Virus genome (UHGV): UHGV-1558343
Direction: 5' to 3' (one strand)
DNA length: 30,962 nucleotides
DNA from: a virus
Shown: positions 9,541 through 30,962 of the stretch, in pieces
Numbering within the stretch: position 1 is the stretch's first letter
Layout: every line of letters begins with the position of its first letter
Notes under the pieces: generated by a model
What the model saw: only the letters and a program-made list of their open reading frames with translations
What the model was told of the DNA's origin: nothing
Database searches by the model: none
Program-made: the position numbers and the translations under genes

Positions 9541-9556
9541 AGTGCTCTCCTAAAAT

Positions 9557-9634: not shown

Positions 9635-9635
9635 A

Positions 9636-9882: not shown

Positions 9883-9888
9883 ATTATT

Positions 9889-9963: not shown

Positions 9964-9969
9964 ACTAAT

Positions 9970-10045: not shown

Positions 10046-10051
10046 AATGTT

Positions 10052-10127: not shown

Positions 10128-10134
10128 ATTAATT

Positions 10135-10212
10135 TGGTAGGAGACAAGGGATTCGAACCCTCAAACATCTCGTTCTAAGCGAGATAGGTTTACCAATTAC
10201 CGTCAATCTCCC
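10135..10212 (-). tRNA. tRNA with anticodon UAG (Leu-type anticodon; short variable arm)
   Basis: anticodon stem TCTCG/CGAGA perfect, loop CUUAGAA; T-loop TTCGAAT; A73; CCA encoded; variable region only 5 nt. Confidence 0.6.
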
Positions 10213-10293
10213 ATTAAATCTTTTTAGAGAACTTCTAAGAACCTAAGCAACAAGGTTCCACAACAAGCTGTAATAACCTTAGAAGCCCTCTAA

Positions 10294-10313
10294 AAAGACC
10301 TAAAAAGGTCTTT
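10294..10313. other. AT-rich hairpin inside a 258-nt tRNA-free spacer
   Basis: AAAGACC-TAAAAA-GGTCTTT palindrome; spacer 10213-10470 has no T-loop motif but several other inverted repeats. Confidence 0.4.
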
Positions 10314-10470
10314 GCATAGTCTTGTTTAATCCGGTGACTAGAACCTTTGGAGAGCTTGATACTATCTCTTCTCCGTGACACCTACTAGGTGCTTTATAGT
10401 CGTGCCGTGTACGCCAATACACGAGTAAAAACCGAGCTTGTTAGACGAGCGCGGGAATTAAATCTTATTA

Positions 10471-10560
10471 GGCGGTAAGTAAAGGAGTCGAACCCTCACC
10501 GTATCTCTACAGTGGCAACTGTTTTCAAGACAGTTTGGCTACCATTAGCCGCTACCTACC
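10471..10560 (-). tRNA. tRNA-Ser(UGA), class II
   Basis: 90 nt; anticodon stem ACTGT/ACAGT, loop CUUGAAA; long variable arm; acceptor GGTAGGT/ACTTACC. Confidence 0.75.
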
Positions 10561-10573
10561 CCTAATAAGACTT

Positions 10574-10656
10574 TGGCATGGGACGGAGGAGTTGAACCCC
10601 TTTGAAACGGTGTTGGAAGCCGTTGCTCATGCCTTAGAGTCTTAACATCGTCCCAT
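10574..10656 (-). tRNA. tRNA-Trp(CCA) with enlarged D region
   Basis: perfect acceptor ATGGGAC/GTCCCAT; anticodon loop UUCCAAC; T-loop TTCAACT; about 27 nt between anticodon stem and acceptor where about 20 are expected. Confidence 0.6.
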
Positions 10657-10799
10657 ACTATAATTCGAAGCTTACTGTATTATCTCAACACTGTAAAGCC
10701 CCTTCTCAGATTATTTACATGTTCTGGAAAACATGAGATACAGACCACCTCCCTACAGGAAGACCCGCTAAGGTCGTCTAAGTAATCTGCTAACTAAAT

Positions 10800-10881
10800 T
10801 GGTCGAGGCGGCAGGACTCGAACCCGCATACTCCACTTACTCGGTTAACGGCTGTTTAGAAGACAGCTGAGATACGCCCCG
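10800..10881 (-). tRNA. atypical tRNA-like gene, anticodon UCU (Arg-type); no recognisable D-arm
   Basis: T-arm GCGGG/TTCGAGT/CCTGC; acceptor CGGGGCG/CGCCTCG; anticodon arm GCTGT-CUUCUAA-ACAGC; only 7 nt between acceptor and anticodon stem; 23 nt between anticodon stem and T-stem. Confidence 0.5.
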
Positions 10882-11128
10882 TAATTATCTTTAAAGACTC
10901 TCTTAGAAAGCCCTTAAAGATGCCCACCTTATTAATCATACCGTGGGCTAGTACGCCAAATTCTTTGATGAGGGATTGGAAGACCTCACTGGTGTTTAGC
11001 CTATCAAGCTACTGCCAGAAAAACATTGTCGTTTGCATTTATTTTAAATTTGCAAAATAGACGCTACGCAACGAAAACTAAGGTTACTATAAAGTAGTCA
11101 CATCTCAATGTCAACAACTTTTTGAAAT

Positions 11129-11204
11129 TGGTACTGTGAGAAGGATTTGAACCTTCTGCCTTTCGGTTATCAGCCGAATGCACATCCATATGTGCTTTCA
11201 CAGC
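11129..11204 (-). tRNA. tRNA-Ile(GAU)
   Basis: anticodon stem TTCGG/CCGAA perfect, loop CUGAUAA; T-loop TTCAAAT; CCA encoded. Confidence 0.8.
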
Positions 11205-11683
11205 ATTGTTACCCCTTCGTGTACTTCTCTGTGGCAATTTGCACAAAGCAAGACACACTTATCAACTTCAGACTGCATTGTAGCCAGTGAGTAGTGTTTT
11301 TTACTTACTGTGAAGTCTTTTGTCTTAGGGTCTAAGTGGTGAAACTCTAGAGCCTTTGTGCACCTATTGTAACCACAAATTGAACAACAACCACCCTTGT
11401 AATCAACTAAAGCCTTCTTCAGTCTGTCACGAGACTTTTTAACGTGCAGTGATTTGGCTTTGCTTTTTTCATGATGGGTCTTATGTTTTTTCATGACTCC
11501 ACCTGCAATACATTCGTCACAGTATTTTCTCGCTTTTGGCGTTACCTTTCCGCATGAATGGCAAGAGCCTTCCTGACTTCTCTTTGGGTGTTTCTTGTTG
11601 TTCACTTTTGCAGAACAAGAGCGTGAGCAAAATTTTCCACCTTTAACGGCTTCATTTCCGCAACCTTTGTTAGCACAAATCAT
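11198..11683 (-). CDS. HNH homing endonuclease
   Basis: multiple CxxC pairs plus FHHLDP and CANCHREVH motifs near C-terminus; ATG at 11681-11683 with AGGTGA SD; lies between tRNA genes. Confidence 0.85.
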   Translation of the reverse strand: MICANKGCGNEAVKGGKFCSRSCSAKVNNKKHPKRSQEGSCHSCGKVTPKARKYCDECIAGGVMKKHKTHHEKSKAKSLHVKKSRDRLKKALVDYKGGCCSICGYNRCTKALEFHHLDPKTKDFTVSKKHYSLATMQSEVDKCVLLCANCHREVHEGVTML

Positions 11684-11700
11684 AAGTATCACCTATAAAT

Positions 11701-11777
11701 TGGAGGTTCAGATGGGAATCGAACCCACATTCATAGGGCTTATGAGACCCTTGCATTACCTTATCTGCGACTGAACC
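11701..11777 (-). tRNA. tRNA-Met(CAU) (elongator Met, fMet or Ile-lysidine not distinguishable)
   Basis: acceptor GGTTCAG/CTGAACC perfect; anticodon loop CUCAUAA; T-loop TTCGATT; CCA encoded. Confidence 0.75.
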
Positions 11778-11781
11778 ATAT

Positions 11782-11857
11782 TGGTAGAAGTGGAGGGATT
11801 CGAACCCATCGCCTGTCAGATTAAAAGTCTGCCGCATCACCATTCTGCTACACTTCC
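11782..11857 (-). tRNA. tRNA-Lys(UUU)
   Basis: anticodon loop CUUUUAA; T-arm ATGGG/TTCGAAT/CCCTC; CCA encoded. Confidence 0.7.
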
Positions 11858-11863
11858 ATTAAA

Positions 11864-12001
11864 TTATCTTTGTAGATAAGCTACCCAGACTTGCTTAAGG
11901 TCTGTAGCGATGTGTCTTTTCGGGTTAAATCTAGAATCTACCCTTCCACCTTTGTGGTCGCATACTCACAGGTAAGCTTAATAACTTATCTACAAAGATA
12001 A
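11864..12001. repeat. perfect 17-bp inverted repeat flanking about 100 nt of hairpin-rich spacer
   Basis: TTATCTTTGTAGATAAG at 11864-11880 and its exact reverse complement CTTATCTACAAAGATAA at 11985-12001; each arm is itself palindromic. Confidence 0.7.
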
Positions 12002-12052
12002 TTACCAGACCGTTGTTTATCATCTTAAGTGCTACCATTACACCAACTCGAC

Positions 12053-12101
12053 ATCTGCCGAGTGAAGGAATCGAACCTTCGCCTTTTCTTTACCGGAGAA
12101 A
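12053..12101 (-). pseudogene. tRNA 3' fragment (T-arm plus anticodon arm, anticodon GGU Thr-type); 5' half missing
   Basis: T-arm GAAGG/TTCGATT/CCTTC and anticodon arm TTTCT-CCGGUAA-AGAAA present; no sequence downstream pairs with acceptor 3' strand ACTCGGC; no CCA. Confidence 0.45.
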
Positions 12102-12116
12102 TAGATTGTTTAAGTT

Positions 12117-12143
12117 TTGCTGTAAACGGTCTTCTGTAAATTT
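12117..12143. repeat. tRNA-spacer repeat copy 1 (TTGCTGTAAACGGTCTTCTGTAAATTT)
   Basis: 27-bp element identical to copy at 13048-13074; sits where the 5' half of the tRNA fragment would be. Confidence 0.75.
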
Positions 12144-12202
12144 GTTGAGCCAGACCAAGTTTTAAATTTTTCAAAATTAAATTGGCTTGAAATTTTAAGT
12201 AA

Positions 12203-12227
12203 CTTGCTGTATTTGGTCTTCTGCTCC
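12203..12227. repeat. tRNA-spacer repeat, degenerate copy
   Basis: CTTGCTGTATTTGGTCTTCTGCTCC shares the TTGCTGTA..GGTCTTCTG core. Confidence 0.55.
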
Positions 12228-12284
12228 TTTAAAGGATACTCGTAAGAACCCTTTAATGGAGGGGCTAAATAGCCCTCTCAAAAT

Positions 12285-12360
12285 TGGCGAGGTATGCGAG
12301 AATCGAACTCGCGGCTCAGGAGAGACAATCCCGTATTTTACCCGTCTAAACTAATACCCC
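12285..12360 (-). tRNA. tRNA-Asp(GUC)
   Basis: anticodon loop UUGUCUC; T-arm GCGAG/TTCGATT/CTCGC; acceptor GGGGTAT/ATACCTC; CCA encoded. Confidence 0.7.
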
Positions 12361-12364
12361 AAAT

Positions 12365-12793
12365 TCATGTACCATTTCTTAGATACTTCTTCCTACGTCT
12401 TTCTGGACTATAGTTTCTTCTACTCTCAGCATTCTTAGCCAGCCTACACTCATCGCATCTACAGCCTTTAAAATAGCTATACGCAGTTCCGTGTTTAATT
12501 GTTTTATGTTTTCTTTCACTTATCTGTGCTGGTCTTGCTGCTTTCATGTTACATTTAAGATGACTATAAGAAATATTATCTAGTGAAAAGAAAAGCTCTT
12601 TTGCATTCTCACTATGTCTCCACGGAATCTTATGCTCGATAGAGAAATCATCCCTAGTCATTTCTTTTCCGCACTGAAAACATCTATTTTGATTTGTCTT
12701 ACATATAAAATCGAATAGCAAATCTTTTACTAGTCTGTTTTGTGCAGTTCCCAAACTCATACCAAGTTGTGATTTGTATACTTCATCTCTCAT
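12365..12793 (-). CDS. HNH homing endonuclease
   Basis: CFQCG ... EHKIPW ... HLKCN motif set; C-terminal Cys/Arg-rich segment GCRCDECR; ORF track start overlaps tRNA-Tyr so internal ATG at 12791-12793 is proposed. Confidence 0.8.
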   Translation of the reverse strand: MRDEVYKSQLGMSLGTAQNRLVKDLLFDFICKTNQNRCFQCGKEMTRDDFSIEHKIPWRHSENAKELFFSLDNISYSHLKCNMKAARPAQISERKHKTIKHGTAYSYFKGCRCDECRLAKNAESRRNYSPERRRKKYLRNGT

Positions 12794-12815
12794 AACTAAG
12801 TATCTCGCTAAGTGT

Positions 12816-12903
12816 TGGTGTGCCGTGTAGGAGTCGAACCTACCGAGTCTCAATGACAAGGGATTTACAGTCCCCACCGCTACCATCTACGGGATAACGA
12901 CAC
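12816..12903 (-). tRNA. tRNA-Tyr(GUA), class II
   Basis: 88 nt; anticodon loop CUGUAAA; long variable region; acceptor GTGTCGT/ACGGCAC; CCA encoded. Confidence 0.75.
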
Positions 12904-12915
12904 ATTTCAATTTTG

Positions 12916-12989
12916 CGGTTAGTCAGGGATTCGAACCCTGTGCCATTCGCTTAACAGGCGACCGCACATACCTTATGTGCTTCCTAACC
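12916..12989 (-). tRNA. tRNA-Asn(GUU)
   Basis: D-arm GCAC-9nt-GTGC; anticodon loop CUGUUAA; T-loop TTCGAAT; CCA not encoded. Confidence 0.75.
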
Positions 12990-13047
12990 ATGTTTAGTAT
13001 TACCAGACCGTATCTTTCAATTTTTTCCGCTAAAAATTTAATAAATA

Positions 13048-13074
13048 TTGCTGTAAACGGTCTTCTGTAAATTT
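13048..13074. repeat. tRNA-spacer repeat copy 2 (TTGCTGTAAACGGTCTTCTGTAAATTT)
   Basis: exact 27-bp duplicate of 12117-12143; abuts the 3' end of the tRNA at 13074. Confidence 0.75.
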
Positions 13075-13150
13075 GGAGGCGGGTGCAGGAGTCGAACCTG
13101 CCGATACCATGCTAATGAGACATGTGAGACGCCCTTTCTCTATACCCGCA
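13074..13150 (-). tRNA. tRNA with anticodon CAU (Met or Ile-lysidine), tentative
   Basis: anticodon loop CUCAUUA; D-arm GAGA-7nt-TCTC; acceptor with 1:72 mismatch; CCA encoded. Confidence 0.6.
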
Positions 13151-13213
13151 ATTCTTAATGACCAGACCAAATCTCTTCTTTGTCCGATTTACCTTCAGAT
13201 GAATAAGATTAAG

Positions 13214-13240
13214 TTTGCTGTAATTGGTCTTCTGTCAAAA
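13214..13240. repeat. tRNA-spacer repeat, degenerate copy
   Basis: TTTGCTGTAATTGGTCTTCTGTCAAAA directly beside the 3' end of tRNA-Glu. Confidence 0.6.
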
Positions 13241-13241
13241 C

Positions 13242-13319
13242 TGGCGTTCCAGAAGGGATTTGAACCCTCAGATATCCACTTTGAAAGAGTGGTGACTATA
13301 CCATTTTGTCTACTGGAAC
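13242..13319 (-). tRNA. tRNA-Glu(UUC)
   Basis: perfect acceptor GTTCCAG/CTGGAAC; anticodon stem CCACT/AGTGG perfect, loop CUUUCAA; CCA encoded. Confidence 0.8.
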
Positions 13320-13326
13320 ATTAATT

Positions 13327-13403
13327 TGGTCTCTGTTGGAGGACTTGAACCTCCGGCCTTACCGCCCCAAACGGAACGCTCTACCAAGCTGAGCTAAACA
13401 GAG
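13327..13403 (-). tRNA. tRNA-Pro(UGG)
   Basis: classic D-arm GCTCAGCTTGGTAGAGC; anticodon loop UUUGGGG; T-loop TTCAAGT; perfect acceptor; CCA encoded. Confidence 0.8.
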
Positions 13404-22692: not shown

Positions 22693-22721
22693 GAGCCTCC
22701 TTAATTGGGGGGCTTTTTATT
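22693..22721 (+). terminator. rho-independent terminator ending the plus-strand operon
   Basis: GAGCCTCC ... GGGGGGCT stem followed by TTTTTATT. Confidence 0.7.
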
Positions 22722-23354
22722 GAGTAAAATTTACGAAATTTATATTTTTTTATAAAATTTTATCGGTTGTCCCAACCTCTGGGTCACCATCATATGTGAA
22801 CAAAATATCTATCCTTCTTAACAACCTTCTTAATCTTACTCTCTATATATAGTTATATAGTACTATATAGTATCTTAGTAACTATCTAGTGGTCTTAATA
22901 GCCCCTCTGTATAACCCTTCTAACTAGCCCTCTAACAAGCCTTCTAAACACTCTTCTAACAAGCCTTCTTAACAACCTATACAATCACCTTAACCATCCC
23001 TCTACACCCTCTTAGAAGCTCCTATACATCTCTTAATCTCTAGGTTACCTATGATACCCTCTATAGGTGTTCACTAGGTATTACTAAACCTCTATATAGA
23101 CTGTTTTAACAAACTTAACAGGGATATCTTTACAGACCTTATTTCACAAGGTCTAACACGGTACTAACAAGGTATCTTATAAGCCTGTTTCTACCTGTAT
23201 TTTTAAAAGACTGTATAGGTAATTATTCAGAATCTTAAAATTTTTATAAAATAGGACTATCAAGTCATTTTTTAGGGTCTTTGAAGGAACTGAAAAATAT
23301 CTGTCTAGTTGATTCGGTAGAATCTACCTCATGATGTATATCTGCTTGGTAGCC

Positions 23355-23632
23355 CTTAACAGCCCCTTAACACCCCCTTTGCAAAATTTTAAAATATCCT
23401 TAACAATCTCTTAACAGTTCTCACATCTTCTTAACAACTCTTCAAAGGTCTTAACAGATTCTTAACAGAACTAACAAGGCTGTAACAGTTTCTTAACAGT
23501 TGATACATAGTCTTTACAGATGCTTAACAGATGACTAACAAGAGCTAACAAGTTAATTTTTAAGAGTTATTTTGTTAAGATAATTAACAAGTTTCTAACA
23601 AGTGTTTAATCTTTTTAACAAGCTATTAACAT
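23355..23632. repeat. periodic array of at least 17 degenerate TCTTAACAG / CTAACAAG units spaced 10-11 bp
   Basis: runs such as tcttaacagat tcttaacagaa ctaacaaggc tgtaacagtt tcttaacagt; spacing equals one helical turn. Confidence 0.8.
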
Positions 23633-23882
23633 GGTCACTACTTCTTTCTTATCGTTCCCTTTCCTTTCTTAATTGGTATTGTTATGAGGATGCTTCATCC
23701 GAATCATCTACCAATCCCTAGTGATTCTCTAAATAGCCCTCTTAAAAGCTCTCTATAGCTCTTTATAGTCTCTTTTAAGCCTCTTCCTAGTATCTACCCC
23801 CAACTGTACAGATAGCTCTTTATAGGGCTTTACAGGAGCTTTTAAGGCTATGTCAAAGGTTCTTACAAGGCTTTTACGTGGT

Positions 23883-23990
23883 CTTAACAGAGGTTTAACA
23901 AGGGGCTAACAAGTTGCTAACAAGTGCCTTAAAAGCATAACTGTGTAGGGTTTGTTAAGAAATTGTTAAGAAAATGTTAAGGGGGCTAGA
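23883..23990. repeat. second TTAACA(A/G) cluster with inverted-orientation copies
   Basis: cttaacagaggtttaacaaggggctaacaagttgctaacaag followed by gttaagaaattgttaagaaaatgttaag (reverse orientation). Confidence 0.7.
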
Positions 23991-24360
23991 ATTTACGTAA
24001 CTTTTAAGCTACTTTTACGTAACTTTGAAGTAACTTTATAGCCCCTATAACATGCTTTTTAGTGACTAGCAAGGGGGTTGTTTAACCATTCACAAGATAC
24101 TAACCAGCCTATAAGCTTACACCCTTATAAGATTCTTTTAAGTCTCTATAAAGCCCTGTAAAGAGCTTTTTAAGATAGGTTAATGCAATCCCTTAAGTTA
24201 GGTTGATAAGGCTGTTATAGAGCGTTATAGAGCGTTTTAGGGGTTGCCCTTCCCTTTCGGGTTATGGGCTTATATTTAAGTTGATTTGATAAGAGGTTAT
24301 AGAGTAAGCTATAGAGTTATTGCTCTAAATGTCTGGTAAGAGCCTAGAAAGGGATTGTAT

Positions 24361-24390
24361 AGACGTTAAAAAGCCCCATTGAAGGGGCTT
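24361..24390 (-). terminator. hairpin followed by short U-run downstream of the last small minus-strand gene
   Basis: AAGCCCC-ATTGAA-GGGGCTT stem-loop; minus-strand transcript continues TTTAACG. Confidence 0.5.
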
Positions 24391-24443
24391 GTATAGGTTC
24401 TGGGGCTATTTGCCCGTTGCGGCGTCTTGTTAATCAAATAACT

Positions 24444-24620
24444 TTCTTGTAAGACTTGCCGGAAATGATGTAGTTAGTAACTGAATGATTTAACAAGTCT
24501 GTACCAGTGATGACTACCATTTCTTCATTTTTCTTTTCTTCATGCTCTTTTTTCATTTCTTCCCAACGTTTAGCACCAAATTTTGCAACCATACGCTGTT
24601 CAAAATTCATCTTTCAAGTC
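24444..24620 (-). CDS. hypothetical small protein (58 aa)
   Basis: ATG at 24618-24620 right after a type A cassette; translates MNFEQRMVAKFGAKRWEEMKKEHEEKKNEE...; below ORF-track size cutoff. Confidence 0.5.
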
Positions 24621-24726
24621 TCCAGTTTAGGAAGTAGTTTAAGGGCTTTATTTAGTGGGGAAGGTCATTCCCTCCCCGTTGATTAGTAATTTACTTGTTT
24701 TGATAGCTGATTGCAAGTAATTTTTT
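24621..24726 (-). promoter_or_regulatory. type A promoter/stem-loop/RBS cassette
   Basis: minus strand: TTGCAA -35 (24721-24726), 17 bp, TAAATT -10 (24698-24703), GC-rich hairpin GGGGAGGGAATGACCTTCCCC, GGAG SD, ATG. Confidence 0.7.
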
Positions 24727-24845
24727 GAGCTTATCTATAAAGAATCTTTTAAGTGAATCCCTTTTAGATAAACCCCCTCGAACAAAGTTACCAATGTCAA
24801 GGGGTATTGTCAACACTTTTTTAAAAGTTTTTTGTAAGTTATTGA

Positions 24846-25187
24846 TTAACTGATGAATATTTTTTCAGGCTTTACATAGCTGATACGCTGACTTTTTAGC
24901 AGGTCATCCCAGATTAGAGCGGCAATATGAGAGTAACCGGATTCACGTAAGAGCTTCATTGTTCTACTTCTTGTTTCAAATCGGTTTACGTAGTACTCAC
25001 TATTTAAGGTCGTTTTATTCCCTTCGTTATCTGTATGGATAATCTGCATCACTTGAAAGGGGCTTGTATCCTCACCTCTATTCCACTGTTCAAAGTATTT
25101 TAGGCACTGCATAGGTGACATCTTGTCACTAACCTGAGTTGACCAAGATGAATTCTCTTTATCGGTAATTACGGTTACATAAGCCAT
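24846..25187 (-). CDS. hypothetical protein
   Basis: 113 aa ORF with ATG and GGAG SD inside a conserved upstream cassette. Confidence 0.6.
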   Translation of the reverse strand: MAYVTVITDKENSSWSTQVSDKMSPMQCLKYFEQWNRGEDTSPFQVMQIIHTDNEGNKTTLNSEYYVNRFETRSRTMKLLRESGYSHIAALIWDDLLKSQRISYVKPEKIFIS

Positions 25188-25260
25188 TTTAGAATCTCCA
25201 GTTTAGGAAGTGAGATTGCTAGATACTTTATCTTTACTTAAAACGGTTTACAATAGATTT
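25188..25260 (-). promoter_or_regulatory. short cassette variant (promoter plus RBS, no strong hairpin)
   Basis: minus strand: TTGTAA - about 18 bp - TAAAGT then CCTAAACTGGAGATTCTAAA ATG. Confidence 0.5.
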
Positions 25261-25380
25261 TTTCTTTAAATGCAGTTTTTCTGCTTTTTTCATGGTTTTT
25301 ACTAGTAACATCATGACAAATGAGAAAATCATCTCTGAGAATACAGGGTTGTTAAAAACTGTCTCAATAGTATGCGTCAT
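25234..25380 (-). CDS. hypothetical small hydrophobic protein (48 aa)
   Basis: ATG at 25378-25380 after a type A cassette; translates MTHTIETVFNNPVFSEMIFSFVMMLLVKTMKK...; hand-translated, below ORF-track cutoff. Confidence 0.4.
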   Translation of the reverse strand: MTHTIETVFNNPVFSEMIFSFVMMLLVKTMKKAEKLHLKKKSIVNRFK

Positions 25381-25475
25381 CTTTTTGAATCTCCTAGTTT
25401 AAGGACTTTATTTAGTGGGAAGGTCATCACCTCCCCGTTGATTAGTAATTTACAGACTTTTATCAGGTTTGTCTA
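25381..25475 (-). promoter_or_regulatory. type A promoter/stem-loop/RBS cassette
   Basis: minus strand: TAGACA -35 (25470-25475), 17 bp, TAAATT -10 (25447-25452), hairpin GGGGAGGTGATGACCTTCCC, GGAG SD. Confidence 0.7.
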
Positions 25476-25706
25476 GTCTTTTTCAATGATAATTTCATAT
25501 TGACCATCAACACTGTCGAAATAGATTCCGTCGTCATCTTCTGTCTTAAAGTAGCATTGAATATCATCACTGGCGGGATAGTCTTGTCTTGCTATCTGGC
25601 AAACTTGAACAGCATTCTCTTTACTCCCTGTAAACTCCTCAAGCCCTTTAAAATCGCATGAATGACCATTACAAATAGAAAGGATGAGATAAACGGTTGT
25701 AAGCAT
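25473..25706 (-). CDS. hypothetical small Cys-containing protein with hydrophobic N-terminus (possible secreted or membrane protein)
   Basis: 77 aa; MLTTVYLILSICNGHSC N-terminus; AGGAGG SD; acidic C-terminal half. Confidence 0.55.
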   Translation of the reverse strand: MLTTVYLILSICNGHSCDFKGLEEFTGSKENAVQVCQIARQDYPASDDIQCYFKTEDDDGIYFDSVDGQYEIIIEKD

Positions 25707-25749
25707 GATTTAGGCCTCCTAAAAGCCCCTACAAGGGGCTGATTAGTGT

Positions 25750-26313
25750 TTATAAGGTGATTGTATAGGTTTTAAAAAAGCTCTTTAAATCTTTCTCTGT
25801 GATGTTTCCTGCCAGTGTATCCATGATGTCACAAAAAACCTTAATACTGTCTGATTGCTGAATACTTTTAGCGAGAAGCTCCAGAGACTCATCAAGATAG
25901 TTTAAATTTGGGTTATCCAATGAAGGAAGACAAAAAGGTGAATACATAGCGTTAAACTCTGTTGTATAGACCTTTTTAATCCAATTTACATCAAAGTACT
26001 CTGTAAAACTTGCCAGATTTGACATATTATCACAAGAATAATCATCATTTAAGTCATCCTCTGGAATATCAAGTTCCAATATAACAATATTTTGAGTTTT
26101 CATCTGAAAAGCTGCGGTGATAGTGGCATTGCCTAGAGCTTGTTGGATACCTTCGGCTGTTATCTCTTCCTCATCGTCGCCATAGATTTTATTTTCTGGA
26201 TAAACGTAAAAATTGCCGTCCATATCCGAACAATTCCATGCGCCTGATGGTTTATCACCGTTATTAATCAGGTTGATAAAGTTTTCTTGAGTAGTACCAT
26301 GAAAGCATTTCAT
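25750..26313 (-). CDS. hypothetical acidic protein
   Basis: 187 aa with many D/E runs (DDEEEITAEG, DIPEDDLNDDY); preceded by a type B cassette. Confidence 0.6.
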   Translation of the reverse strand: MKCFHGTTQENFINLINNGDKPSGAWNCSDMDGNFYVYPENKIYGDDEEEITAEGIQQALGNATITAAFQMKTQNIVILELDIPEDDLNDDYSCDNMSNLASFTEYFDVNWIKKVYTTEFNAMYSPFCLPSLDNPNLNYLDESLELLAKSIQQSDSIKVFCDIMDTLAGNITEKDLKSFFKTYTITL

Positions 26314-26398
26314 TTTTGAATCTCCAGTTTAGGATTTAGTGGTAAAGCTCTTTATCTGGGGCTTAAGATACCAACTTTTAAGCCCCTTGTAAAGTACT
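26314..26398 (-). promoter_or_regulatory. type B cassette (hairpin overlapping promoter, plus RBS)
   Basis: GGGGCTTAA - loop - TTAAGCCCC hairpin; minus strand TTTACA - 17 bp - TAAAGT; CCTAAACTGGAGATTCAAAA ATG. Confidence 0.65.
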
Positions 26399-26602
26399 TT
26401 ATTTGTTATTTTTGACAACTTTTAAAACTGCACGGTAACCTAAGCAATAGGAATCACCGAAGAGCGACCGGCCCATGAAGGAGTCTTCTGTAATATCTTT
26501 CGCCGTGACGGTTTTTTCTACGCCGTGAAAGAGAACTATATCACCAACTTTAATATCTTTGATGTGAGTTGTTTCAATGTGTAAGCCGTTGATAATAGCC
26601 AT
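26399..26602 (-). CDS. hypothetical small protein
   Basis: 67 aa, ATG directly after a type A cassette. Confidence 0.55.
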   Translation of the reverse strand: MAIINGLHIETTHIKDIKVGDIVLFHGVEKTVTAKDITEDSFMGRSLFGDSYCLGYRAVLKVVKNNK

Positions 26603-26694
26603 TTTTAGAATCTCCAGTTTAGGACTTTATTTAGTGGGGAGGTTATCGCCTCCCCGTTGATGTGTAATTTAACCTATCTAAAAATCAGTGTCAA
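26603..26694 (-). promoter_or_regulatory. type A promoter/stem-loop/RBS cassette
   Basis: minus strand: TTGACA -35 (26689-26694), 17 bp, TAAATT -10 (26666-26671), hairpin GGGGAGGCGATAACCTCCCC, GGAG SD. Confidence 0.75.
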
Positions 26695-26703
26695 CAAAAT
26701 TTT

Positions 26704-27108
26704 TTAGAGTTCTGCATAAATTGCATCACAGACATCACGAAAATCGTGATTTGTCAAATTACGTTGTAACCAAGTGGCAAAGAAATCAGCGATTGCAAAA
26801 TTAGCGTCATACTCGACGGATAGCCATACTTTAACAGCAAATCTAAACATTTTCAAATCTAACTCCCTATTCATTACCTTAGATTTGCCTAGCATATCAA
26901 TCATTTCATATTGCGCACCGTCTAGCGTGATACCTGCTGCAACGTCAGCCAATGAACTTTTTACGTTTTCAACGTCTAAAATAATACTTTGAATCTTCCC
27001 AATAATGCTGTGCAATGTTTCATCTGGTGCTGATGACGTAATAACATTAATCCGGTTAACGGTCAAACGTGCTTTTAAAATTGATAATTCACGGTTATTA
27101 ATAGCCAT
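26704..27108 (-). CDS. hypothetical protein
   Basis: ORF track start is a TTG at 27123; ATG at 27106-27108 (MAINNRELSIL...) has GGAGA SD from the cassette and is preferred. Confidence 0.6.
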   Translation of the reverse strand: MAINNRELSILKARLTVNRINVITSSAPDETLHSIIGKIQSIILDVENVKSSLADVAAGITLDGAQYEMIDMLGKSKVMNRELDLKMFRFAVKVWLSVEYDANFAIADFFATWLQRNLTNHDFRDVCDAIYAEL

Positions 27109-27194
27109 TTTTAAGTTCTCCAATTTAGGATTAAGTGGTAAAGCTCTTTATCTGGGGCTTACTTTATCGAACTATAAGCCCCTTGTAAAGTACT
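27109..27194 (-). promoter_or_regulatory. type B cassette
   Basis: GGGGCTTA - 13 nt - TAAGCCCC hairpin (27154-27182); minus strand TTTACA (27184-27189) - 17 bp - TAAAGT; GGAGA SD. Confidence 0.65.
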
Positions 27195-27467
27195 TTATGC
27201 TAAATGCAGCTTTTTACCTTTTACCATGATGTAACTTGTTGCGCTATTGCTGTATACATCTTGATAAATTCTGCGCAAACGGCCTTCGTAGTATACTTTC
27301 CAGCTAGTTGGAATCTTTTTCCCGTATCCTGTAACAGTTTTTTGGAGTCCTGCAAGTTGCCAATCCAAGATGTGTTGCTCAGCTTGTAAATCTTCAAAGT
27401 GCATCACACCATTCACATAGTGACGTAGGGTTACGTTTAAAGTGCGACCGTTGTTAGTAGCATACAT
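27195..27467 (-). CDS. hypothetical protein
   Basis: 90 aa, ATG after a type A cassette. Confidence 0.6.
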   Translation of the reverse strand: MYATNNGRTLNVTLRHYVNGVMHFEDLQAEQHILDWQLAGLQKTVTGYGKKIPTSWKVYYEGRLRRIYQDVYSNSATSYIMVKGKKLHLA

Positions 27468-27559
27468 TTTTGAATCTCCAGTTTAGGACTTTATTTAGTG
27501 GGGAAGGTCATTCCCTCCCCGTTGATGTGTAATTTAGCCTATCTAAAAATCAGTGTCAA
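27468..27559 (-). promoter_or_regulatory. type A promoter/stem-loop/RBS cassette
   Basis: minus strand: TTGACA -35 (27554-27559, overlapping upstream stop codon), 17 bp, TAAATT -10, hairpin GGGGAGGGAATGACCTTCCCC, GGAG SD. Confidence 0.75.
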
Positions 27560-27888
27560 ACACTTTGTTTTCGTTTGCTCAACTCTTGAACAATTACAGC
27601 GTAGTAGTCTTTTAAGTCACTGATATTCAAGGCATTTATCAGTGAATTATAACCATCGACTAACTGAAAATCATCTTTGAAGATGTCACTTATCTGATAG
27701 GTTTTCGCTTTATATCTGAAGCTCATTTCTAGCCGCTTTATTTGCTCATCACTTAGGCGTCCTAGAAAGCTCTCTACCAAGTTATTGTTAACCTGCTGTG
27801 TGATTGCCTTATTTGCTAGATTATAGGCCTTATACGCCTTATAAAGTGCTATAATGGCAATGATTGCAGTGATACCCATCATTAACAT
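27556..27888 (-). CDS. hypothetical protein with N-terminal transmembrane segment
   Basis: 110 aa; MLMMGITAIIAIIALYKAY hydrophobic N-terminus; AGAGG SD; start overlaps upstream gene end. Confidence 0.55.
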   Translation of the reverse strand: MLMMGITAIIAIIALYKAYKAYNLANKAITQQVNNNLVESFLGRLSDEQIKRLEMSFRYKAKTYQISDIFKDDFQLVDGYNSLINALNISDLKDYYAVIVQELSKRKQSV

Positions 27889-28178
27889 GGTATTACCTCT
27901 TTACGTGATACCTTGCCATTTACAGTTATCTCATAAGATTCTAATAAATCGCTTTTAGACTTTACAGGGCTTTTAAAAGTATCATCGTAGATATTGACTT
28001 GCAATACAGGTTTTTTATATTCCCTACAACTATTCCATAAGCAAACCACTACACGACGGCCTTTGATTTTTCCGTGTAACCATTCCATAACATCATGACT
28101 ATTCCTTGATGTTTCAATGAAATCAATTTTGTTGAGTAACTTGCTTAGATTTTCACGGACTTTATTTGATAGTTTCAT
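27882..28178 (-). CDS. hypothetical protein
   Basis: 98 aa, ATG after a type B cassette. Confidence 0.55.
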   Translation of the reverse strand: MKLSNKVRENLSKLLNKIDFIETSRNSHDVMEWLHGKIKGRRVVVCLWNSCREYKKPVLQVNIYDDTFKSPVKSKSDLLESYEITVNGKVSRKEVIPC

Positions 28179-28266
28179 TTTTGAAACTCCAGTTTAGGAT
28201 TGAGTGGTAAAGCTCTTTATCTGGGGCTATCTTATCAGCTTGATAACCCCCTGTAAAGAAATCTAT
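28179..28266 (-). promoter_or_regulatory. type B cassette
   Basis: same conserved element (CCAGTTTAGGATTGAGTGGTAAAGCTCTTTATCTGGGGCT...) with hairpin and GGAG SD. Confidence 0.6.
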
Positions 28267-28779
28267 TTAGTTCTTAAAGATATTCATCACTGAGTCTTTT
28301 AATGATTCCAAACGCTCTAATACTTCAGATTCTGCGTCTGAGTTGTTCACTTCTTCTTTTAGTCTGTCATCTAAGTCATCGCCGTCACTATAGCACCAAT
28401 CAAAAGCGTAACCAATATAAAAACTGTCTAAAATTGTTTGACCATTTGCATCGACAACTTTCGCGGCAAGGTTGTATTCTGAAGCCTCTAAATCTCTTTC
28501 CAATTCTTTCTGTAAGCTAATGTAAGCCTCTTTTGATGGATTTTCCCGGCCCTGTTTTGCATAGTCACTTGAAAGCTGTTTAAGGCTGTAATGCAAAGGG
28601 ATTGCATATTTAAAATCGTTACGCTGACAGTTAGGGTTTTTAACAGTCACGCCGCCTTGATGGTTATCTGTAAACTTCCAATTATCAAGATTATGGCTTG
28701 CTTCGTAGCAATTCACAGCTTCATAAATAATAGTGAATTTTTCTTTTACAACTTCAAAGGTAGCGTCTACAGTTTTCAT
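28267..28779 (-). CDS. hypothetical acidic protein
   Basis: 170 aa with Asp/Glu-rich C-terminus (DGDDLDDRLKEEVNNSDAESEVLERLE); preceded by a type B cassette. Confidence 0.6.
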   Translation of the reverse strand: MKTVDATFEVVKEKFTIIYEAVNCYEASHNLDNWKFTDNHQGGVTVKNPNCQRNDFKYAIPLHYSLKQLSSDYAKQGRENPSKEAYISLQKELERDLEASEYNLAAKVVDANGQTILDSFYIGYAFDWCYSDGDDLDDRLKEEVNNSDAESEVLERLESLKDSVMNIFKN

Positions 28780-28869
28780 TTTTTGAATCTCCTAGTTTAA
28801 GGTTAGTTAGTAAAGCTCTTTATCTGGGGCTTACTTTATCGAACTATAAGCCCCTTGTAAAGTACTTTA
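28780..28869 (-). promoter_or_regulatory. type B cassette
   Basis: GGGGCTTA - 13 nt - TAAGCCCC hairpin plus conserved RBS segment. Confidence 0.65.
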
Positions 28870-29127
28870 TCAGATTAAATTGCCAGTTAATGATAAGTGC
28901 ATTTTGTAACCTTGTTTAGTGAATACATTCACTTTACCGAGTGTTTTTACACCTTTGAAAAGGTTATTTGGACTACGTTTTAAGGTTAAATGTTTATCAG
29001 CCTTTACGCCCCATCTTACAGCAGACTGTTTCCCGTTGTCAACCACTTTCCCGCCTAACTTTTTCGCCATGATGCGAGCGTCGTCACGAGTCTTTGCAGT
29101 AATTACAACGTTTTTGATAATAGCCAT
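28870..29127 (-). CDS. hypothetical small basic protein
   Basis: 85 aa, Lys-rich, ATG after a type B cassette. Confidence 0.55.
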   Translation of the reverse strand: MAIIKNVVITAKTRDDARIMAKKLGGKVVDNGKQSAVRWGVKADKHLTLKRSPNNLFKGVKTLGKVNVFTKQGYKMHLSLTGNLI

Positions 29128-29212
29128 TTTAGAATCTCCAATTTAGGATTGAGTAGTAAAGCTCTTTATCTGAGGCTTACTTTATCGAACTATAAGCCCC
29201 TTGTAAAGTACT
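29128..29212 (-). promoter_or_regulatory. type B cassette
   Basis: near-identical to 27109-27194 and 28780-28869. Confidence 0.65.
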
Positions 29213-29593
29213 TTATTTAATTTTGAAGATTGTTACATAACCATCGCTCCCGATGATTTGCGATACCCCAGCTTTTTCTACTTTATAGCCCATATTTTCA
29301 AGATGATAAACAGTATCATCATAACCATATGCGCCACCCTGATAACGTCTCTTATCGCATTTTATCAGGTTTTTACCACGTCCAGCAAGTGCATGTAAAA
29401 TGGCTTTTTCACTTGAAAGAGTACCATCTAACATGGTTGCCGTGTAATGGTTGATTCTATTTCCGTTTACATCATACTTAAAATTGAATGCGTGAACAAC
29501 AATAATGTTACCTTTAAAATTTTCATCAAGTGACTTCTCCAGTGCGTTGCGAAAGTTGTCTTTGTTGATGAATTTAGGTGCACGATAAGCCAT
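29213..29593 (-). CDS. hypothetical protein
   Basis: 126 aa, ATG after a type B cassette. Confidence 0.6.
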   Translation of the reverse strand: MAYRAPKFINKDNFRNALEKSLDENFKGNIIVVHAFNFKYDVNGNRINHYTATMLDGTLSSEKAILHALAGRGKNLIKCDKRRYQGGAYGYDDTVYHLENMGYKVEKAGVSQIIGSDGYVTIFKIK

Positions 29594-29682
29594 TTTTGAA
29601 TCTCCTAGTTTAAGGTTAATGTGGTAAAGCTCTTTATCTGGGGCTTAAGATATCAACTTTTAAGCCCCTTGTAAAGTACTTT
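29594..29682 (-). promoter_or_regulatory. type B cassette
   Basis: GGGGCTTAA - loop - TTAAGCCCC hairpin, near-identical to 26314-26398. Confidence 0.65.
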
Positions 29683-29889
29683 TTATTTATCGTAATAGTA
29701 AATTGCTGTCTGTTTTATAAGTCTCTTTGTATTCTTTGTAAGGTAACAATTCGAGTTGATTGCCGTTTCTACATAGTTGCAATAGTCAGCTTCTGATATT
29801 CTACGCCATGCGCCGCAGACTTGCATGTAAAAACGTTTTGCCTTTGTGTTGACGTTAGTTGTAACCATCAATTCGCGACTGTACATCAT
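29683..29889 (-). CDS. hypothetical small protein
   Basis: 68 aa, double ATG start, GGAG SD. Confidence 0.55.
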   Translation of the reverse strand: MMYSRELMVTTNVNTKAKRFYMQVCGAWRRISEADYCNYVETAINSNCYLTKNTKRLIKQTAIYYYDK

Positions 29890-29967
29890 TTTGGATTCTC
29901 CAGTTTAGGAAGTGGGCTTGCTTGCCCGTCTGATGCAAATATTAGATAACCATACTCAAAGAGTCAA
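29890..29967 (-). promoter_or_regulatory. promoter/hairpin/RBS cassette variant with near-consensus promoter
   Basis: minus strand: TTGACT (29962-29967) - 17 bp - TAATAT (29939-29944), then GGGCAAGCAAGCCC hairpin, CCTAAACTGGAGAATCCAAA ATG. Confidence 0.7.
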
Positions 29968-30139
29968 TAGGAATTTTAAAAATATTTTTGCAAAAAACTG
30001 TAATGAAACGGGCGCACGCGATTACCACAAAACAGAACTACAATCAAGAATTATTTTTCAATCCGCTACAAATTTTTCTGTTGACTTTTATTTCCAGATG
30101 TGGTAGCCTTGTGAGAAATGGCGACATTCCCACCTGCAC

Positions 30140-30330
30140 CCACCTACCTGCACAATTCTAAAATGATTTTTCTTGCCCGACCTGATTTTTCTCTGCACGT
30201 TTTGAAAATGAAAAAGCTCTTTGGAGATTACCTGCACAGTTTGAAAATGAATTTTCTCTTTGGAGTTCAAAATTCTCTCTACAGATTTCTCTACAGAACT
30301 CTACCTGCACAATTCTAAAATGAAAAAGCC
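30140..30330. repeat. cluster of interspersed direct repeats in a 430-bp non-coding gap
   Basis: TACCTGCACA three times, CAATTCTAAAATGA twice, TTGAAAATGAA twice, CTCTTTGGAG twice, TTCTCTACAGA twice. Confidence 0.7.
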
Positions 30331-30395
30331 CTCCTTACCTGAAAATTTACCAGATAAGAAAGGCTTAGTCTATTGTGAATATTCTACAGAGTTTC

Positions 30396-30962
30396 TTAGT
30401 TCTTTGCGTCTAAGAAGGTAACTTCCGGTGAAGAGAAAATTTCCTCAACATCCTCATCATTTCTTGCATAGATATATGTATCTGCATCACTGCCAAATGT
30501 TACTGCAATTCTGTGATTGCTCTTCGACAGGTGGGTAACTAGAGCGTTACTTAGAGACATCTTTTCAACCGGAGGGTTACTTTGATGTATCTTACCTTTT
30601 CTTCGTCTGAAGAGGGTAACTGTATCGTCTGTGAACACTACTACGCCTGCAAAGTATTCTGGCTCACAGTAGTTCTTCCAATCTGAGTGTAACTCGTTGT
30701 ACATCTCTGTCTCGTAGACATATAGGTAAACATCTACGCTCTTCATCACCTGATTAATGATAACTGTGACGGCTTGAGGGTCAAGTCCACCGATACCTGC
30801 ACCAATCATAGGTAAACCAACTTTCTTCAACTGATTAACTTCACAGTATCTGTTAAGTTGTTTCAAAGATGACTCTAAAGCACTGTATCGGGCATCTTTA
30901 CCAGTCTTAAGCTGAGTGTAAAGGTTAGCTATACGGCCTTGTTCTAAACGTGCTACAGAGAA
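30396..30962 (-). CDS. macro-domain (ADP-ribose binding/processing) protein, C-terminal part; N-terminus lies beyond window end
   Basis: frame is open from 30962 with no stop; motif KKVGLPMIGAGIGGLDP resembles the macro-domain C-terminal Gly-rich loop; ORF track lists only 30396..30866 from a TTG. Confidence 0.55.
   Translation of the reverse strand, partial: FSVARLEQGRIANLYTQLKTGKDARYSALESSLKQLNRYCEVNQLKKVGLPMIGAGIGGLDPQAVTVIINQVMKSVDVYLYVYETEMYNELHSDWKNYCEPEYFAGVVVFTDDTVTLFRRRKGKIHQSNPPVEKMSLSNALVTHLSKSNHRIAVTFGSDADTYIYARNDEDVEEIFSSPEVTFLDAKN

Follow-up and report, generated by a model that had tools for sequence, protein, structure and literature searches.

Organization of the small-gene array

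The window analysed here (the whole stretch of 30,962 nt of DNA) belongs to a Felix O1-like myovirus (Felixounavirus), and the array region has matches at ~90% identity in 254 Felix O1-like phage records. The array consists of 14 ORFs on the minus strand (24434–29889), coding, in order, for 68, 126, 85, 170, 98, 110, 90, 134, 67, 187, 77, 48, 113 and 58 aa (Table 1). All of the 14 small minus-strand ORFs of 48–187 aa listed in the first-pass annotation are present, with one correction: the ORF given as 139 aa has its true start at the ATG at 27108 and therefore codes for 134 aa. Scans of the 14 proteins against Pfam and PHROG produced only weak or unknown-function matches. PHROG matches were obtained for 13 of them, all to families of unknown function, while g14 has no PHROG match and its homologs were found in only 21 phage records.

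The 12 cassette copies counted initially were also recovered: six of type B, four of type A, one A-like first promoter (P0) and one hairpin-less copy before the 113-aa gene. A direct-repeat finder returned a 90-nt unit six times (type B, 69–93% identity to the reference copy), a 70-nt unit four times (type A) and the leader CCTAAACTGGAGATTC at least eight times. The initial claim of a cassette before each gene holds except at two junctions. At one of them (g5/g6, 27882–27888) the genes overlap; the other (25707–25749) has a terminator-like hairpin, which the wV8 annotation gives as a Rho-independent terminator. The intrinsic-terminator-like hairpin that closes the array is the counterpart of Felix O1 terminator t23.

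Motif scans and a covariance model run over the whole 31-kb window confined the cassette elements to positions 24600–29970 of the minus strand, with no cassettes outside the array, and all copies point the same way. The covariance model recovered the six type B copies, all in the array, at 70–87 bits (E ≤ 1e-14); once their own reverse-strand echoes were set aside, the next match scored 13.6 bits. For comparison we used 14 relatives from four Ounavirinae genera, counting gene presence over 15 loci and comparing distinct cassette copies (80 of type B, 76 of type A). Both types are conserved across this set.

Table 1. Genes, cassettes and terminator-like sites of the array
Feature	Position	Strand	Description
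P0, first cassette, A-like	29890–29970	-	TTGACT (29967–29962), 17 nt, TAATAT (29944–29939); then short GGGC..GCCC hairpin, leader CCTAAACTGGAG and ATG; full type A cassette at this position in ekra, UAB_Phi87 and wV8
g1	29683–29889	-	68 aa, basic, PHROG 5293; absent from UAB_Phi87 and wV8
Type B cassette 1	29594–29682	-	-10 TATCTT, leader variant L2; covariance-model match 29623–29682, 87.2 bits; extended hairpin -22.2 kcal/mol, z -3.3
g2	29213–29593	-	126 aa, PHROG 4495; absent from Felix O1
Type B cassette 2	29128–29212	-	-10 TAAAGT, leader L1; 79.3 bits (covariance model)
g3	28870–29127	-	85 aa, very basic (pI 10.8), PHROG 5089; absent from Felix O1
Type B cassette 3	28780–28869	-	-10 TAAAGT, leader L2; 83.8 bits
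g4	28267–28779	-	170 aa, acidic (pI 4.6)
Type B' cassette 4	28179–28266	-	TTTACA-17-TAAGAT; upper stem differs (GGGGTTATC/GATAGCCCC); 69.7 bits
g5	27882–28178	-	98 aa, PHROG 4401; in 15/15 loci
g6	27556–27888	-	110 aa, N-terminal membrane helix, start overlaps g5 end, PHROG 4375
Type A cassette 1	27468–27559	-	TTGACA (overlaps g6 stop codon)-17-TAAATT, ACACATCAAC, hairpin GGGGAGGG/CCTTCCCC, ACTAAATAAAG, leader
g7	27195–27467	-	90 aa, PHROG 3436
Type B cassette 5	27109–27194	-	-10 TAAAGT, leader L1; 84.8 bits, folding z -4.8
g8	26704–27108	-	134 aa, PHROG 4327; Felix O1 ORF20
Type A cassette 2	26603–26703	-	TTGACA-17-TAAATT, hairpin GGGGAGG/CCTCCCC
g9	26399–26602	-	67 aa, PHROG 3623; absent from Felix O1
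Type B cassette 6	26314–26398	-	-10 TATCTT, leader L1; 86.0 bits
g10	25750–26313	-	187 aa, very acidic (pI 4.05)
Non-cassette junction	25707–25749	-	terminator-like hairpin AGCCCCTTGTAGGGGCT, TTTT, AGGAGG ribosome site
g11	25473–25706	-	77 aa, acidic, lipoprotein-like N-terminus (…LILSIC), PHROG 4640
Type A cassette 3	25381–25475	-	TAGACA (contains g11 stop codon)-17-TAAATT, hairpin, leader L2
g12	25234–25380	-	48 aa, hydrophobic, PHROG 31746; among 15 loci only here and in NBSal004
Hairpin-less cassette	25188–25253	-	TTGTAA (inside g12)-17-TAAAGT (25253–25225), leader CTTCCTAAACTGGAG; before g13
g13	24846–25187	-	113 aa, PHROG 4318; Felix O1 ORF21
Type A cassette 4	end of 24611–24845 (~24700)	-	TTGCAA-17-TAAATT, hairpin, hybrid L2/L1 leader; closes long conserved spacer (235 nt)
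g14	24434–24610	-	58 aa, sporadic accessory gene; 2–3 different genes at its place in other phages
Intrinsic-terminator-like hairpin	24368–24389	-	AGCCCC-TTCAAT-GGGGCT, then TTTT

Promoter signature of the cassettes

Judged by its pattern of conservation across the 14 relatives, a sigma-70 promoter signature is present in both cassette types, and the array promoters look host-type. In type B, the -35 element is TTTACA in 79 of the 80 distinct copies from the four genera, the spacer is invariably 17 nt, and the -10 element conforms to TAnnnT in every copy, even though 11 different hexamers occur. These -10 hexamers are weak (e.g. TAAAGT, TATCTT), and the discriminator after them is GC-rich. The hairpin loop is variable except for the invariant T and A of the -10. 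In type A, the -10 is likewise TAnnnT in all 76 copies; TTG is found 17 nt upstream in 68 of them (background 1.9%) and an upstream tract of at least four A residues in 72 (background 11.7%). The four type A promoters in the window had all been described as TTGACA-17-TAAATT, which is the case at 27559 and 26694, but not at 25475 (TAGACA) or ~24700 (TTGCAA).

It might be argued that the repeats act purely at the RNA level, as processing sites, attenuators or stabilisers between the cistrons of one long operon transcribed from the promoter at 29967, the hexamers being incidental. The weakness of the type B -10, the long conserved type B hairpin with wobble pairs on the sense strand, and the presence at the flanks of the array of a strong first promoter and no more than two terminator-like sites are all consistent with such an operon. 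However, it does not explain why TA and T are invariant in an otherwise variable loop or why the 17-nt spacing is kept in 80 of 80 copies. Nor does it account for the 22 type A copies whose -35 lies within the preceding ORF and which retain TTG and the A-tract at the right distance inside coding sequence. We consider this explanation distinctly improbable.

Conserved hairpins

The 8–9 bp hairpin noted at first in type B cassettes is merely the top of a longer structure, the lower stem having been missed. The whole promoter lies inside an extended stem-loop of ~59 nt and 18–20 bp, in whose lower stem the region around the -35 pairs with the first transcribed bases. In 58 distinct sequences, pairing extends to 97.7% of the cells, as opposed to no more than 60% after sliding of the 3' partners. 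RNAalifold independently recovers the same fold, and the folding z-scores of the six cassettes range from -2.3 to -4.8. The stem has wobble pairs that can form on the sense strand alone, as well as G-C to U-A changes at two pairs. Independent covariation events in the stems are few: the count of two pairs changed on both sides is also reached by 108 of 500 shuffles. Hairpins of both cassette types are conserved across the four genera, with sense-strand wobble and compensatory changes. Between genera, type B cassettes are 76–87% identical, compared with 37–70% for the flanking proteins.

A perfect 12-bp palindrome, TAAAGTACTTTA, overlaps the type B -35, and a related segment, ATAAAGAGCTTTAC, lies at +3 to +16 as a near-copy 47 bp downstream of it; AGATAAAGAGCTTTA is nearly invariant across the four genera. 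These best-conserved parts could be operators through which a phage regulator switches all array promoters together. Yet the two segments are mutually complementary and make up the lower stem, which, with its compensatory change and wobbles, is enough to explain their conservation. Moreover, the B' variant has lost the left half-site, the downstream segment fails as a separate small hairpin (one of six pairs is open in 42 of the 58 sequences), and no candidate DNA-binding regulator was identified. Operator control is, in our assessment, unlikely.

In type A, an A-tract lies upstream of TTGNNN, and after the 17-nt spacer and TAAATT comes a G4-rich hairpin. This hairpin, which begins 2–4 nt past the predicted transcription start, probably forms a stem-loop that protects the 5' end of the mRNA started at the cassette itself. 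In type B, TTTACA, the 17-nt spacer and TAnnnT are all embedded in the stem-loop. Its hairpin cannot belong to the RNA started at the cassette itself and would therefore have to act on read-through RNA from upstream, attenuating it, protecting its 3' end or serving as an RNase III-type processing site. Strong termination is doubtful, since no U-tract follows the cassette hairpins. The predicted starts are at an A located after CCCC in type B and before GGGG in type A. A common leader ends both types, and with its ribosome site (GGAG, 8 nt ahead of the ATG) it gives every gene the same translation start region.

Gene gain and loss at the cassettes

Each novel gene adjacency between relatives contains one intact cassette of normal length, and three-way alignments reveal chimeric junction cassettes at gene-plus-cassette indels. 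Sub-modules are also reassorted: at one orthologous position, each loop variant is found with each leader variant, giving all four combinations. One gene family is found at two array positions, and gene order differs in an Erwinia phage. Overall, phages of the genus keep a largely colinear order, and true reordering is seen only between genera. The changes in the array thus appear to be mostly gene gain and loss rather than free shuffling, so that the gene shuffling suggested initially stands as far as gain and loss at cassettes are concerned, but not as free reordering. The cassettes look like crossover points for single-gene gain and loss, although selection for intact genes could partly account for the clean junctions. 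Because the 60–100 bp cassettes are near-identical, homologous recombination could add, delete or swap gene-plus-cassette units while leaving the neighbours unbroken.

Small genes alternating with imperfect inverted repeats of 60–100 bp, and entire gene-plus-repeat units that come and go, are reminiscent of an integron-like site-specific cassette system with a dedicated recombinase, or of repeats that are themselves small mobile elements. Such a system is highly improbable here. Pfam and PHROG scans of the 14 array proteins revealed no integrase or recombinase, and the sequence shows neither terminal inverted repeats nor target duplications. Every copy is oriented the same way and lies within the array, and crossovers fall within long identical stretches, as homologous recombination predicts.

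Acidic array proteins

DNA mimicry had been raised for two acidic proteins. Mimics directed against restriction or other DNA-targeting defences would agree with the net charges of g4 (-13), g10 (-20) and g11 (-11), with the location of the genes in an early accessory region and with the confident structure model of g4, for which no informative fold relative was found. However, g10 models as an ADP-ribosyltransferase-like fold in which an HGT…Y…E pattern (H5-G-T, Y36/Y38, E80) is conserved, and its Bas63 ortholog, gp107, was independently described as Tpt1-like and as more essential on E. coli S17-1. The N-terminus of g11 is of the lipoprotein type, and g4 lacks any positive link to DNA mimicry. 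The suggestion thus does not fit g10, the most acidic of them, and we find mimicry by the acidic proteins improbable.

Early expression and relation to known elements

In Felix O1, transcripts of four array genes (ORF16, 20, 21 and 22) are maximal 5 min after infection by RT-PCR, in agreement with the early-gene modules proposed in the first-pass annotation; ORF14, 17, 19 and 23 peak at 25 min, not at 5 min (PMC3185647).

PeSL (promoter-early stem-loop) elements, as described in the literature, include stem-loops between or overlapping the -35 and -10, or just 3' of the -10, often of the form GGGG…CCCC. In T4-like phages they are likewise ~100-bp intergenic composites reaching from stop codon to ATG (Arbiol et al. 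2010, PMC2839356; Comeau et al. 2014, PMC4122927). PeSL and the array have in common an early promoter of the sigma-70 type whose spacer is 17 nt, a GGGG…CCCC stem-loop and a ribosome site; a stem-loop between or over the -35 and -10 corresponds to type B, and one just after the -10 to type A. Both occur in clusters amid small genes without known function, and in both, indels between relatives break within cassettes. The T4/PST PeSL consensus, TTTACW-N17-TAYWAT, resembles type B. There are also differences: the phage with the array is a member of a different subfamily (Ounavirinae), type B adds the lower stem to give an 18–20 bp structure that encloses the promoter from the -35 to about +15, and the array leader is longer and almost fixed.

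Type B also resembles the RNase III processing hairpins that lie between early genes of phage T7 (R1.1 type; substrate rules in PMC1540722) in its intercistronic position, length of about two helical turns, internal loop and placement in early mRNA. By analogy, a cut in the internal loop would provide the upstream message with a hairpin protecting its 3' end. There is no sequence similarity, and the T7 sites are without a promoter. Morons of lambdoid phages are genes flanked by their own promoter and terminator. Array units are similarly autonomous single-gene expression units gained or lost between related phages but, unlike morons, have a shared cassette that is a likely recombination substrate.

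The promoter-specific conservation among the 80 copies of type B and the 76 of type A, the hairpins kept in four genera, the chimeric junctions and the reassorted sub-modules support the original proposal of reusable PeSL-type promoter/stem-loop/ribosome-site modules. It is therefore likely that the array is an early, plastic small-gene region in which almost every gene has its own composite cassette of the PeSL kind. That host RNA polymerase fires these promoters early is an inference, as are the parts played by the hairpins in RNA and by the genes.

The cassette repeats are the same sequences as the "direct repeats" of Felix O1 (57-bp CTTTACATGGGGCTTAAAAG… and 39-bp TTGACACTGGTTTTTAGATAGATTAAATTACACATCAAC), annotated as DR_1 to DR_9 in the wV8 GenBank record. 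The Felix O1 paper listed them without interpretation, outside its predicted promoters, and called the temporal control of transcription unknown. Felix O1-type repeats that had been logged only as "direct repeats" would thus be PeSL-like elements.

Cassette inventory

The 14 minus-strand ORFs (48-187 aa) and the repeat families of the first-pass annotation were recovered by ORF calling and a repeat finder. The repeats fall into three families, namely six 90-nt type B cassettes, four 70-nt type A cassettes and a leader, CCTAAACTGGAGATTC, present in at least eight copies. According to motif scans and a covariance model run over the 31-kb window, all cassette copies lie within 24600-29970 on the minus strand. 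The type B covariance model, built from 58 sequences, gave exactly six matches (70-87 bits) in these 31 kb; beyond them and their own reverse-strand echoes, no match exceeded 14 bits. Intergenic lengths are 85-104 nt; the cassette edge includes a stop codon, and GGAG precedes the ATG by 8 nt.

The previous count of 12 copies holds for ten type A and type B cassettes, the remaining two being an A-like first promoter and a copy without the hairpin (see the table). Nor does a cassette occupy each junction, as had been assumed: at one junction the genes overlap, and at another a terminator-like hairpin is followed by AGGAGG. g11 is the only array gene that stands behind such a hairpin and ribosome site rather than a cassette. 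The start given for a 139-aa ORF had to be corrected to the ATG at 27108.

Positions and properties of selected features of the array and its borders
Feature	Position	Strand	Promoter or net charge	Remark
Terminator after the putative macro-domain gene	30326-30366			upstream array border
A-like first promoter	29967-29939	-	TTGACT-17-TAATAT	
g4			-13	confident model, no informative relative
g10	25750-26313	-	-20	ADP-ribosyltransferase / RNA 2'-phosphotransferase-like predicted fold
g11	25473-25706	-	-11	lipoprotein-type N-terminus
Hairpin-less cassette copy	25253-25225	-	TTGTAA-17-TAAAGT	promoter retained
Terminator	24368-24389			downstream array border

The loop of the type A hairpin, GGGAATGACC, holds an ATG that has been taken as a start (e.g. 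window 27508-27528, minus strand, and 3484-3801 of L001, a locus fetched from a relative), which leads ORF callers to false N-terminal extensions. Felix O1 ORF19, for example, was annotated with 105 aa rather than 90 aa, and other records also contain several gene calls extended in this way. A further observation concerns the 235-nt spacer at 24611-24845, where two TTGACA hexamers lie 13 nt apart at 24785-24813 (minus strand), with a possible TTGACA-17-TAACTT promoter. The spacer (~220 nt) is conserved across relatives, and the hexamers may serve an extra transcript or a small RNA.

Promoter signature of the two cassette types

The homologous region was taken from 14 relatives representing four genera: Felixounavirus (Felix O1, wV8, Bas63 and others), Suspvirus (SUSP1), Mooglevirus (Maleficent and Sf13) and Kolesnikvirus (Erwinia phage Panisse). 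The expectation that the cassettes recur in related phages was borne out, as both types were recovered from the relatives and their gene content could be compared. Type B was found in all four genera. Among its 80 distinct copies, the -35 hexamer is TTTACA in 79, while the 17-nt spacer and a -10 hexamer of the form TAnnnT are present in every one. The -10 comes as eleven different hexamers, including TAAAGT, TATCTT, TAAGAT, TAGTAT and TAATCT. All aligned copies share the T and A of the hexamer (100% conservation), and at the next three positions the majority base reaches only ~30-50%. Judged from this alignment, invariant T and A amid variable positions are the signature of a predicted -10 element and not of a loop. 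A second promoter in type B was considered and discarded, because by sequence the downstream CTTTACC has no TAnnnT at a workable spacing.

In type A, the -10 likewise reads TAnnnT in all 76 distinct copies. TTG is found 17 nt upstream of it in 68 of the 76 (background 1.9%), and the copies without TTG read TAGACA, which contains a stop codon. A tract of four or more A just upstream is present in 72 of the 76 (background 11.7%), and in 22 copies the -35 is retained within the preceding ORF. The formula TTGACA-17-TAAATT proposed for type A fits two of the four window copies; in the others the -35 is TAGACA and TTGCAA. Both cassette types have a C-A step 7-8 nt downstream of the -10, which, given the usual E. 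coli start-site spacing, is likely the transcription start.

Hairpins and their possible role in RNA

Whole-cassette folding of types A and B gave z-scores of -2.2 to -4.8. The type A hairpin, e.g. GGGGAGGG-AATGA-CCTTCCCC, starts 2-4 nt past the predicted start and therefore would be a 5'-terminal stem-loop on the cassette's own mRNA. Stem-loops of this kind shield E. coli mRNAs against 5'-end-dependent decay. The hairpin sequence differs between genera (GGGGCAAG…, GGGAAACATCCC), and a G-run…C-run hairpin is always retained there.

For type B, the hairpin of 8-9 bp described in the first-pass annotation is present as an upper stem, but a larger fold of 18-20 bp with a 3x3 internal loop (z -2.3 to -4.8 in whole-cassette folding) had been missed. 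In its lower stem, TAAAGU·ACUUUA, which spans the -35 and the bases in front of it, is paired with UAAAGA·GCUUUA (approximately +3 to +16). The pairing occurs in 97.7% of cells over 58 distinct sequences; sliding the 3' partners lowers this to 60% or less. RNAalifold independently gives the same fold. G-C to U-A changes at two pairs are seen in four Erwinia-phage copies and in eight copies of the type B variant B'. This covariation is thin, as it comes from few independent events and 108 of 500 shuffles match the count of doubly changed pairs. At three positions the pair is U·G or G·U, where the other strand would have A·C mismatches; this polarity favours a fold of the sense-strand RNA. Since both the -10 and the start lie inside the structure, the hairpin would form only in RNA coming from upstream. 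The segment GATAAAGAGCTTTAYC was also considered as a separate hairpin or operator and rejected, with one of its six pairs unpaired in 42 of the 58 sequences; it pairs with the region around the -35.

What comes directly after the hairpin is AGATAAAG in type B and ACTAAATAAAG in type A, with no U-tract, which makes efficient intrinsic termination at type B unlikely. A terminator scan found no intrinsic terminators at cassettes on the gene strand, where only 25707-25749 and 24368-24389 fit. E. coli RNase III substrates of the T7 R1.1 type span roughly two helical turns and have an internal loop that limits cutting to one strand; a single cut there leaves behind a 3' hairpin with a protective role (PMC1540722). 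The length and internal loop of type B fit these general rules, and by this analogy we put forward, purely as a hypothesis, that the type B hairpin would be an RNase III-type substrate. A more far-reaching reading, which we regard as rather unlikely, is that type B has a dual use: a promoter within an RNA processing hairpin, the 59-bp inverted repeat of which doubles as a crossover site for gene exchange. RNA from upstream would fold into a substrate of the RNase III type of ~20 bp, and the embedded promoter would start transcription at its 3' internal loop; cleaved read-through and locally initiated transcripts would share their 5' leader, and a protective 3' hairpin would stay on the upstream message.

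Rfam gave no match in the array at E ≤ 1, and at the gathering threshold only tRNAs were found in the window. A RegB annotation in the Erwinia relative prompted the idea that the invariant leader GGAG might be cut by a T4 RegB-like endoribonuclease. The idea is without support, because the annotated protein is really a Vs.1/SLT-domain homolog. The "putative RegB" at 1048-1560 of L013 (the locus of Erwinia phage Panisse) is T4 Vs.1-like with an SLT transglycosylase domain, and its annotation is wrong.

Gene gain, loss and recombination at cassettes

Within a genus, gene order is largely colinear, with differences in gene presence and absence. Felix O1 is devoid of g2, g3, g9, g10 and g11; wV8 is devoid of g1 and g4 and has one extra gene. 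Among the compared loci, g12 (48 aa) is confined to the window and NBSal004. In the window, g14 (58 aa) replaces two or three different genes of other phages, and its homologs occur in only 21 phage records. A single cassette of normal length spans each novel gene adjacency. Three-way alignments reveal that the junction cassettes in Felix O1 and wV8 are chimeras, with the promoter side coming from the upstream parent, the leader side from the downstream parent and the switch falling within 30-50 bp of shared sequence. Moreover, the very different loop haplotypes TAGTTCGATAAAG/AAAGTTGATATCT and the leader variants CCTAAACTGGAG/CCTTAAACTAGGAG are found in all four combinations at single orthologous positions, which means that exchange takes place within or between cassettes.

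Between genera the genes are reordered. One family is first in allfine and ekra and twelfth in Maleficent (40% identity), and in the Erwinia phage the order of the shared families is different. Between genera, type B shows 76-87% identity, compared with 37-70% for the flanking proteins. It might be argued that the array is an integron or another mobile element. However, no integrase or recombinase domain is present in the array proteins, and the crossovers, which fall in long identical stretches, look like homologous recombination; we therefore rejected this reading. A short-term evolution study of two Felixounaviruses reported nothing for the array region.

Gene content, expression timing and flanks

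A Pfam scan of the 14 array proteins gave nothing above threshold, and 13 of them belong to PHROGs of unknown function. Sequence-profile searches with g10 also found nothing. Its structural model is of moderate quality (pLDDT 66.7), with H5-G-T, Y36/Y38 and E80 conserved. An independent description of the Bas63 ortholog, gp107, calls it Tpt1-like, and on E. coli S17-1 this ortholog is conditionally important. The model makes g10 a candidate early ADP-ribosyltransferase. The suggestion that acidic array proteins are DNA mimics fits g10 poorly, as this protein is acidic but has an ART-like predicted fold. g4 (170 aa, pLDDT 93.2) is acidic as well; considered as a mimic of the Ocr/ArdA type, it matched nothing informative in fold comparison. 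A membrane helix is present in g6 (110 aa), and g11 (77 aa) starts with MLTTVYLILSIC, a lipoprotein-like signal.

End-point RT-PCR in Felix O1 showed ORF16, 20, 21 and 22 to be maximal 5 min after infection and ORF14, 17, 19 and 23 to peak at 25 min (PMC3185647). The former set comprises the orthologs of g4, g8 and g13 and one gene absent from the window. The view of the array as early genes is thereby supported for part of it, but not for all.

In a database search, the 5.5-kb region matched 254 phage records at ~90% identity, almost all of them Felix O1-like myoviruses with Escherichia, Salmonella, Shigella and Citrobacter hosts. The tRNA cluster typical of these phages is present at 7428-13403 (minus strand), with 25 tRNA genes versus 22 reported for Felix O1. 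As the border terminators are counterparts of Felix O1 t13 and t23, the array corresponds to Felix O1 genes 14-23. Record GU169904.1 (147 kb), named Staphylococcus phage SA1, contains the two cassette types in several copies at 83-96% identity. Felix O1-like sequence seems to be present in this record, which is thus likely chimeric or contaminated.

The gene just upstream of the array (30396-30962, minus strand) continues past the window end and contains a GLPMIGAGIGGL motif. By sequence it appears to encode a macro-domain protein; its ortholog is annotated as a phosphatase in Felix O1 (ORF13) and as pfam01661 in Sf13 (gp59). Taken with g10, this predicted gene may point to an ADP-ribose writer/eraser pair. 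At 30140-30340, in the gap that separates the upstream terminator from the first array promoter, lie 3-4 copies of a ~35-nt repeat (…TCATTTTAGAATTGTGCAGGTA…, minus strand). They could be regulator-binding sites or iterons. At this place some relatives have annotations of tiny opposite-strand ORFs. On the other side, 22700-24370 is a stretch of ~1.7 kb without a sizeable ORF and with dense short repeats (CTTGTTAG, CTGTTAAG, CTATAAAG, CTTAAAAG). Its counterpart carries repeat_regions annotation in relatives, and a connection of this stretch with the genome ends, with packaging or with replication is possible.

Relationship to promoter-early stem-loop cassettes

Promoter-early stem-loops (PeSLs) of T4-like phages combine a strong sigma-70-type early promoter with a stem-loop, often GGGG…CCCC, located between or over the hexamers or just past the -10, in a unit of ~100 bp that begins at a stop codon and ends at the ribosome site; such units occur clustered among orphan genes and coincide with indel breakpoints (PMC2839356, PMC4122927). 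The two Felix O1-type cassettes match this definition feature by feature. Types A and B both have a sigma-70-like early promoter, identified in silico only. A stable stem-loop is present at the promoter, with the upper stem paired in 96.9% of cells (58 sequences). All copies are clustered in the 5.5-kb array, a plastic region of small genes of unknown function, and indel and replacement breakpoints fall in the cassettes. This fit places the cassettes, as sequence-predicted members, within the known PeSL kind. In T4-like phages, promoter and terminator/attenuator activity and mini-circle formation of PeSLs have been assayed by reporter fusions and inverse PCR (PMC2839356). The extended promoter-enclosing hairpin predicted for type B is distinctive.

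Reports of PeSLs have been confined to T4-like phages, and Felix O1-type phages are not mentioned in PMC2839356 and PMC4122927. Our literature searches found no transcriptome, start-site map or PeSL report for Felix O1-type phages. In the Felix O1 and wV8 records the cassette sequences are listed as direct repeats without interpretation; the Felix O1 paper does not include them among predicted promoters and calls temporal regulation unknown, and in other genome papers promoter prediction stays generic.

Felix O1-type phages are widely used in Salmonella and E. coli typing, biocontrol and therapy. For their early region, the present analysis supplies about a dozen predicted host-type promoters and transcript starts. 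The cassettes represent natural, tolerated insertion points for engineering, and they flag the genes likeliest to be host-specific accessories, among them the candidate ADP-ribosyltransferase g10. Our findings extend the PeSL mode of gaining and losing genes beyond T4-like phages, which suggests that an early-gene toolbox made swappable by cassettes is a general strategy of large virulent phages.
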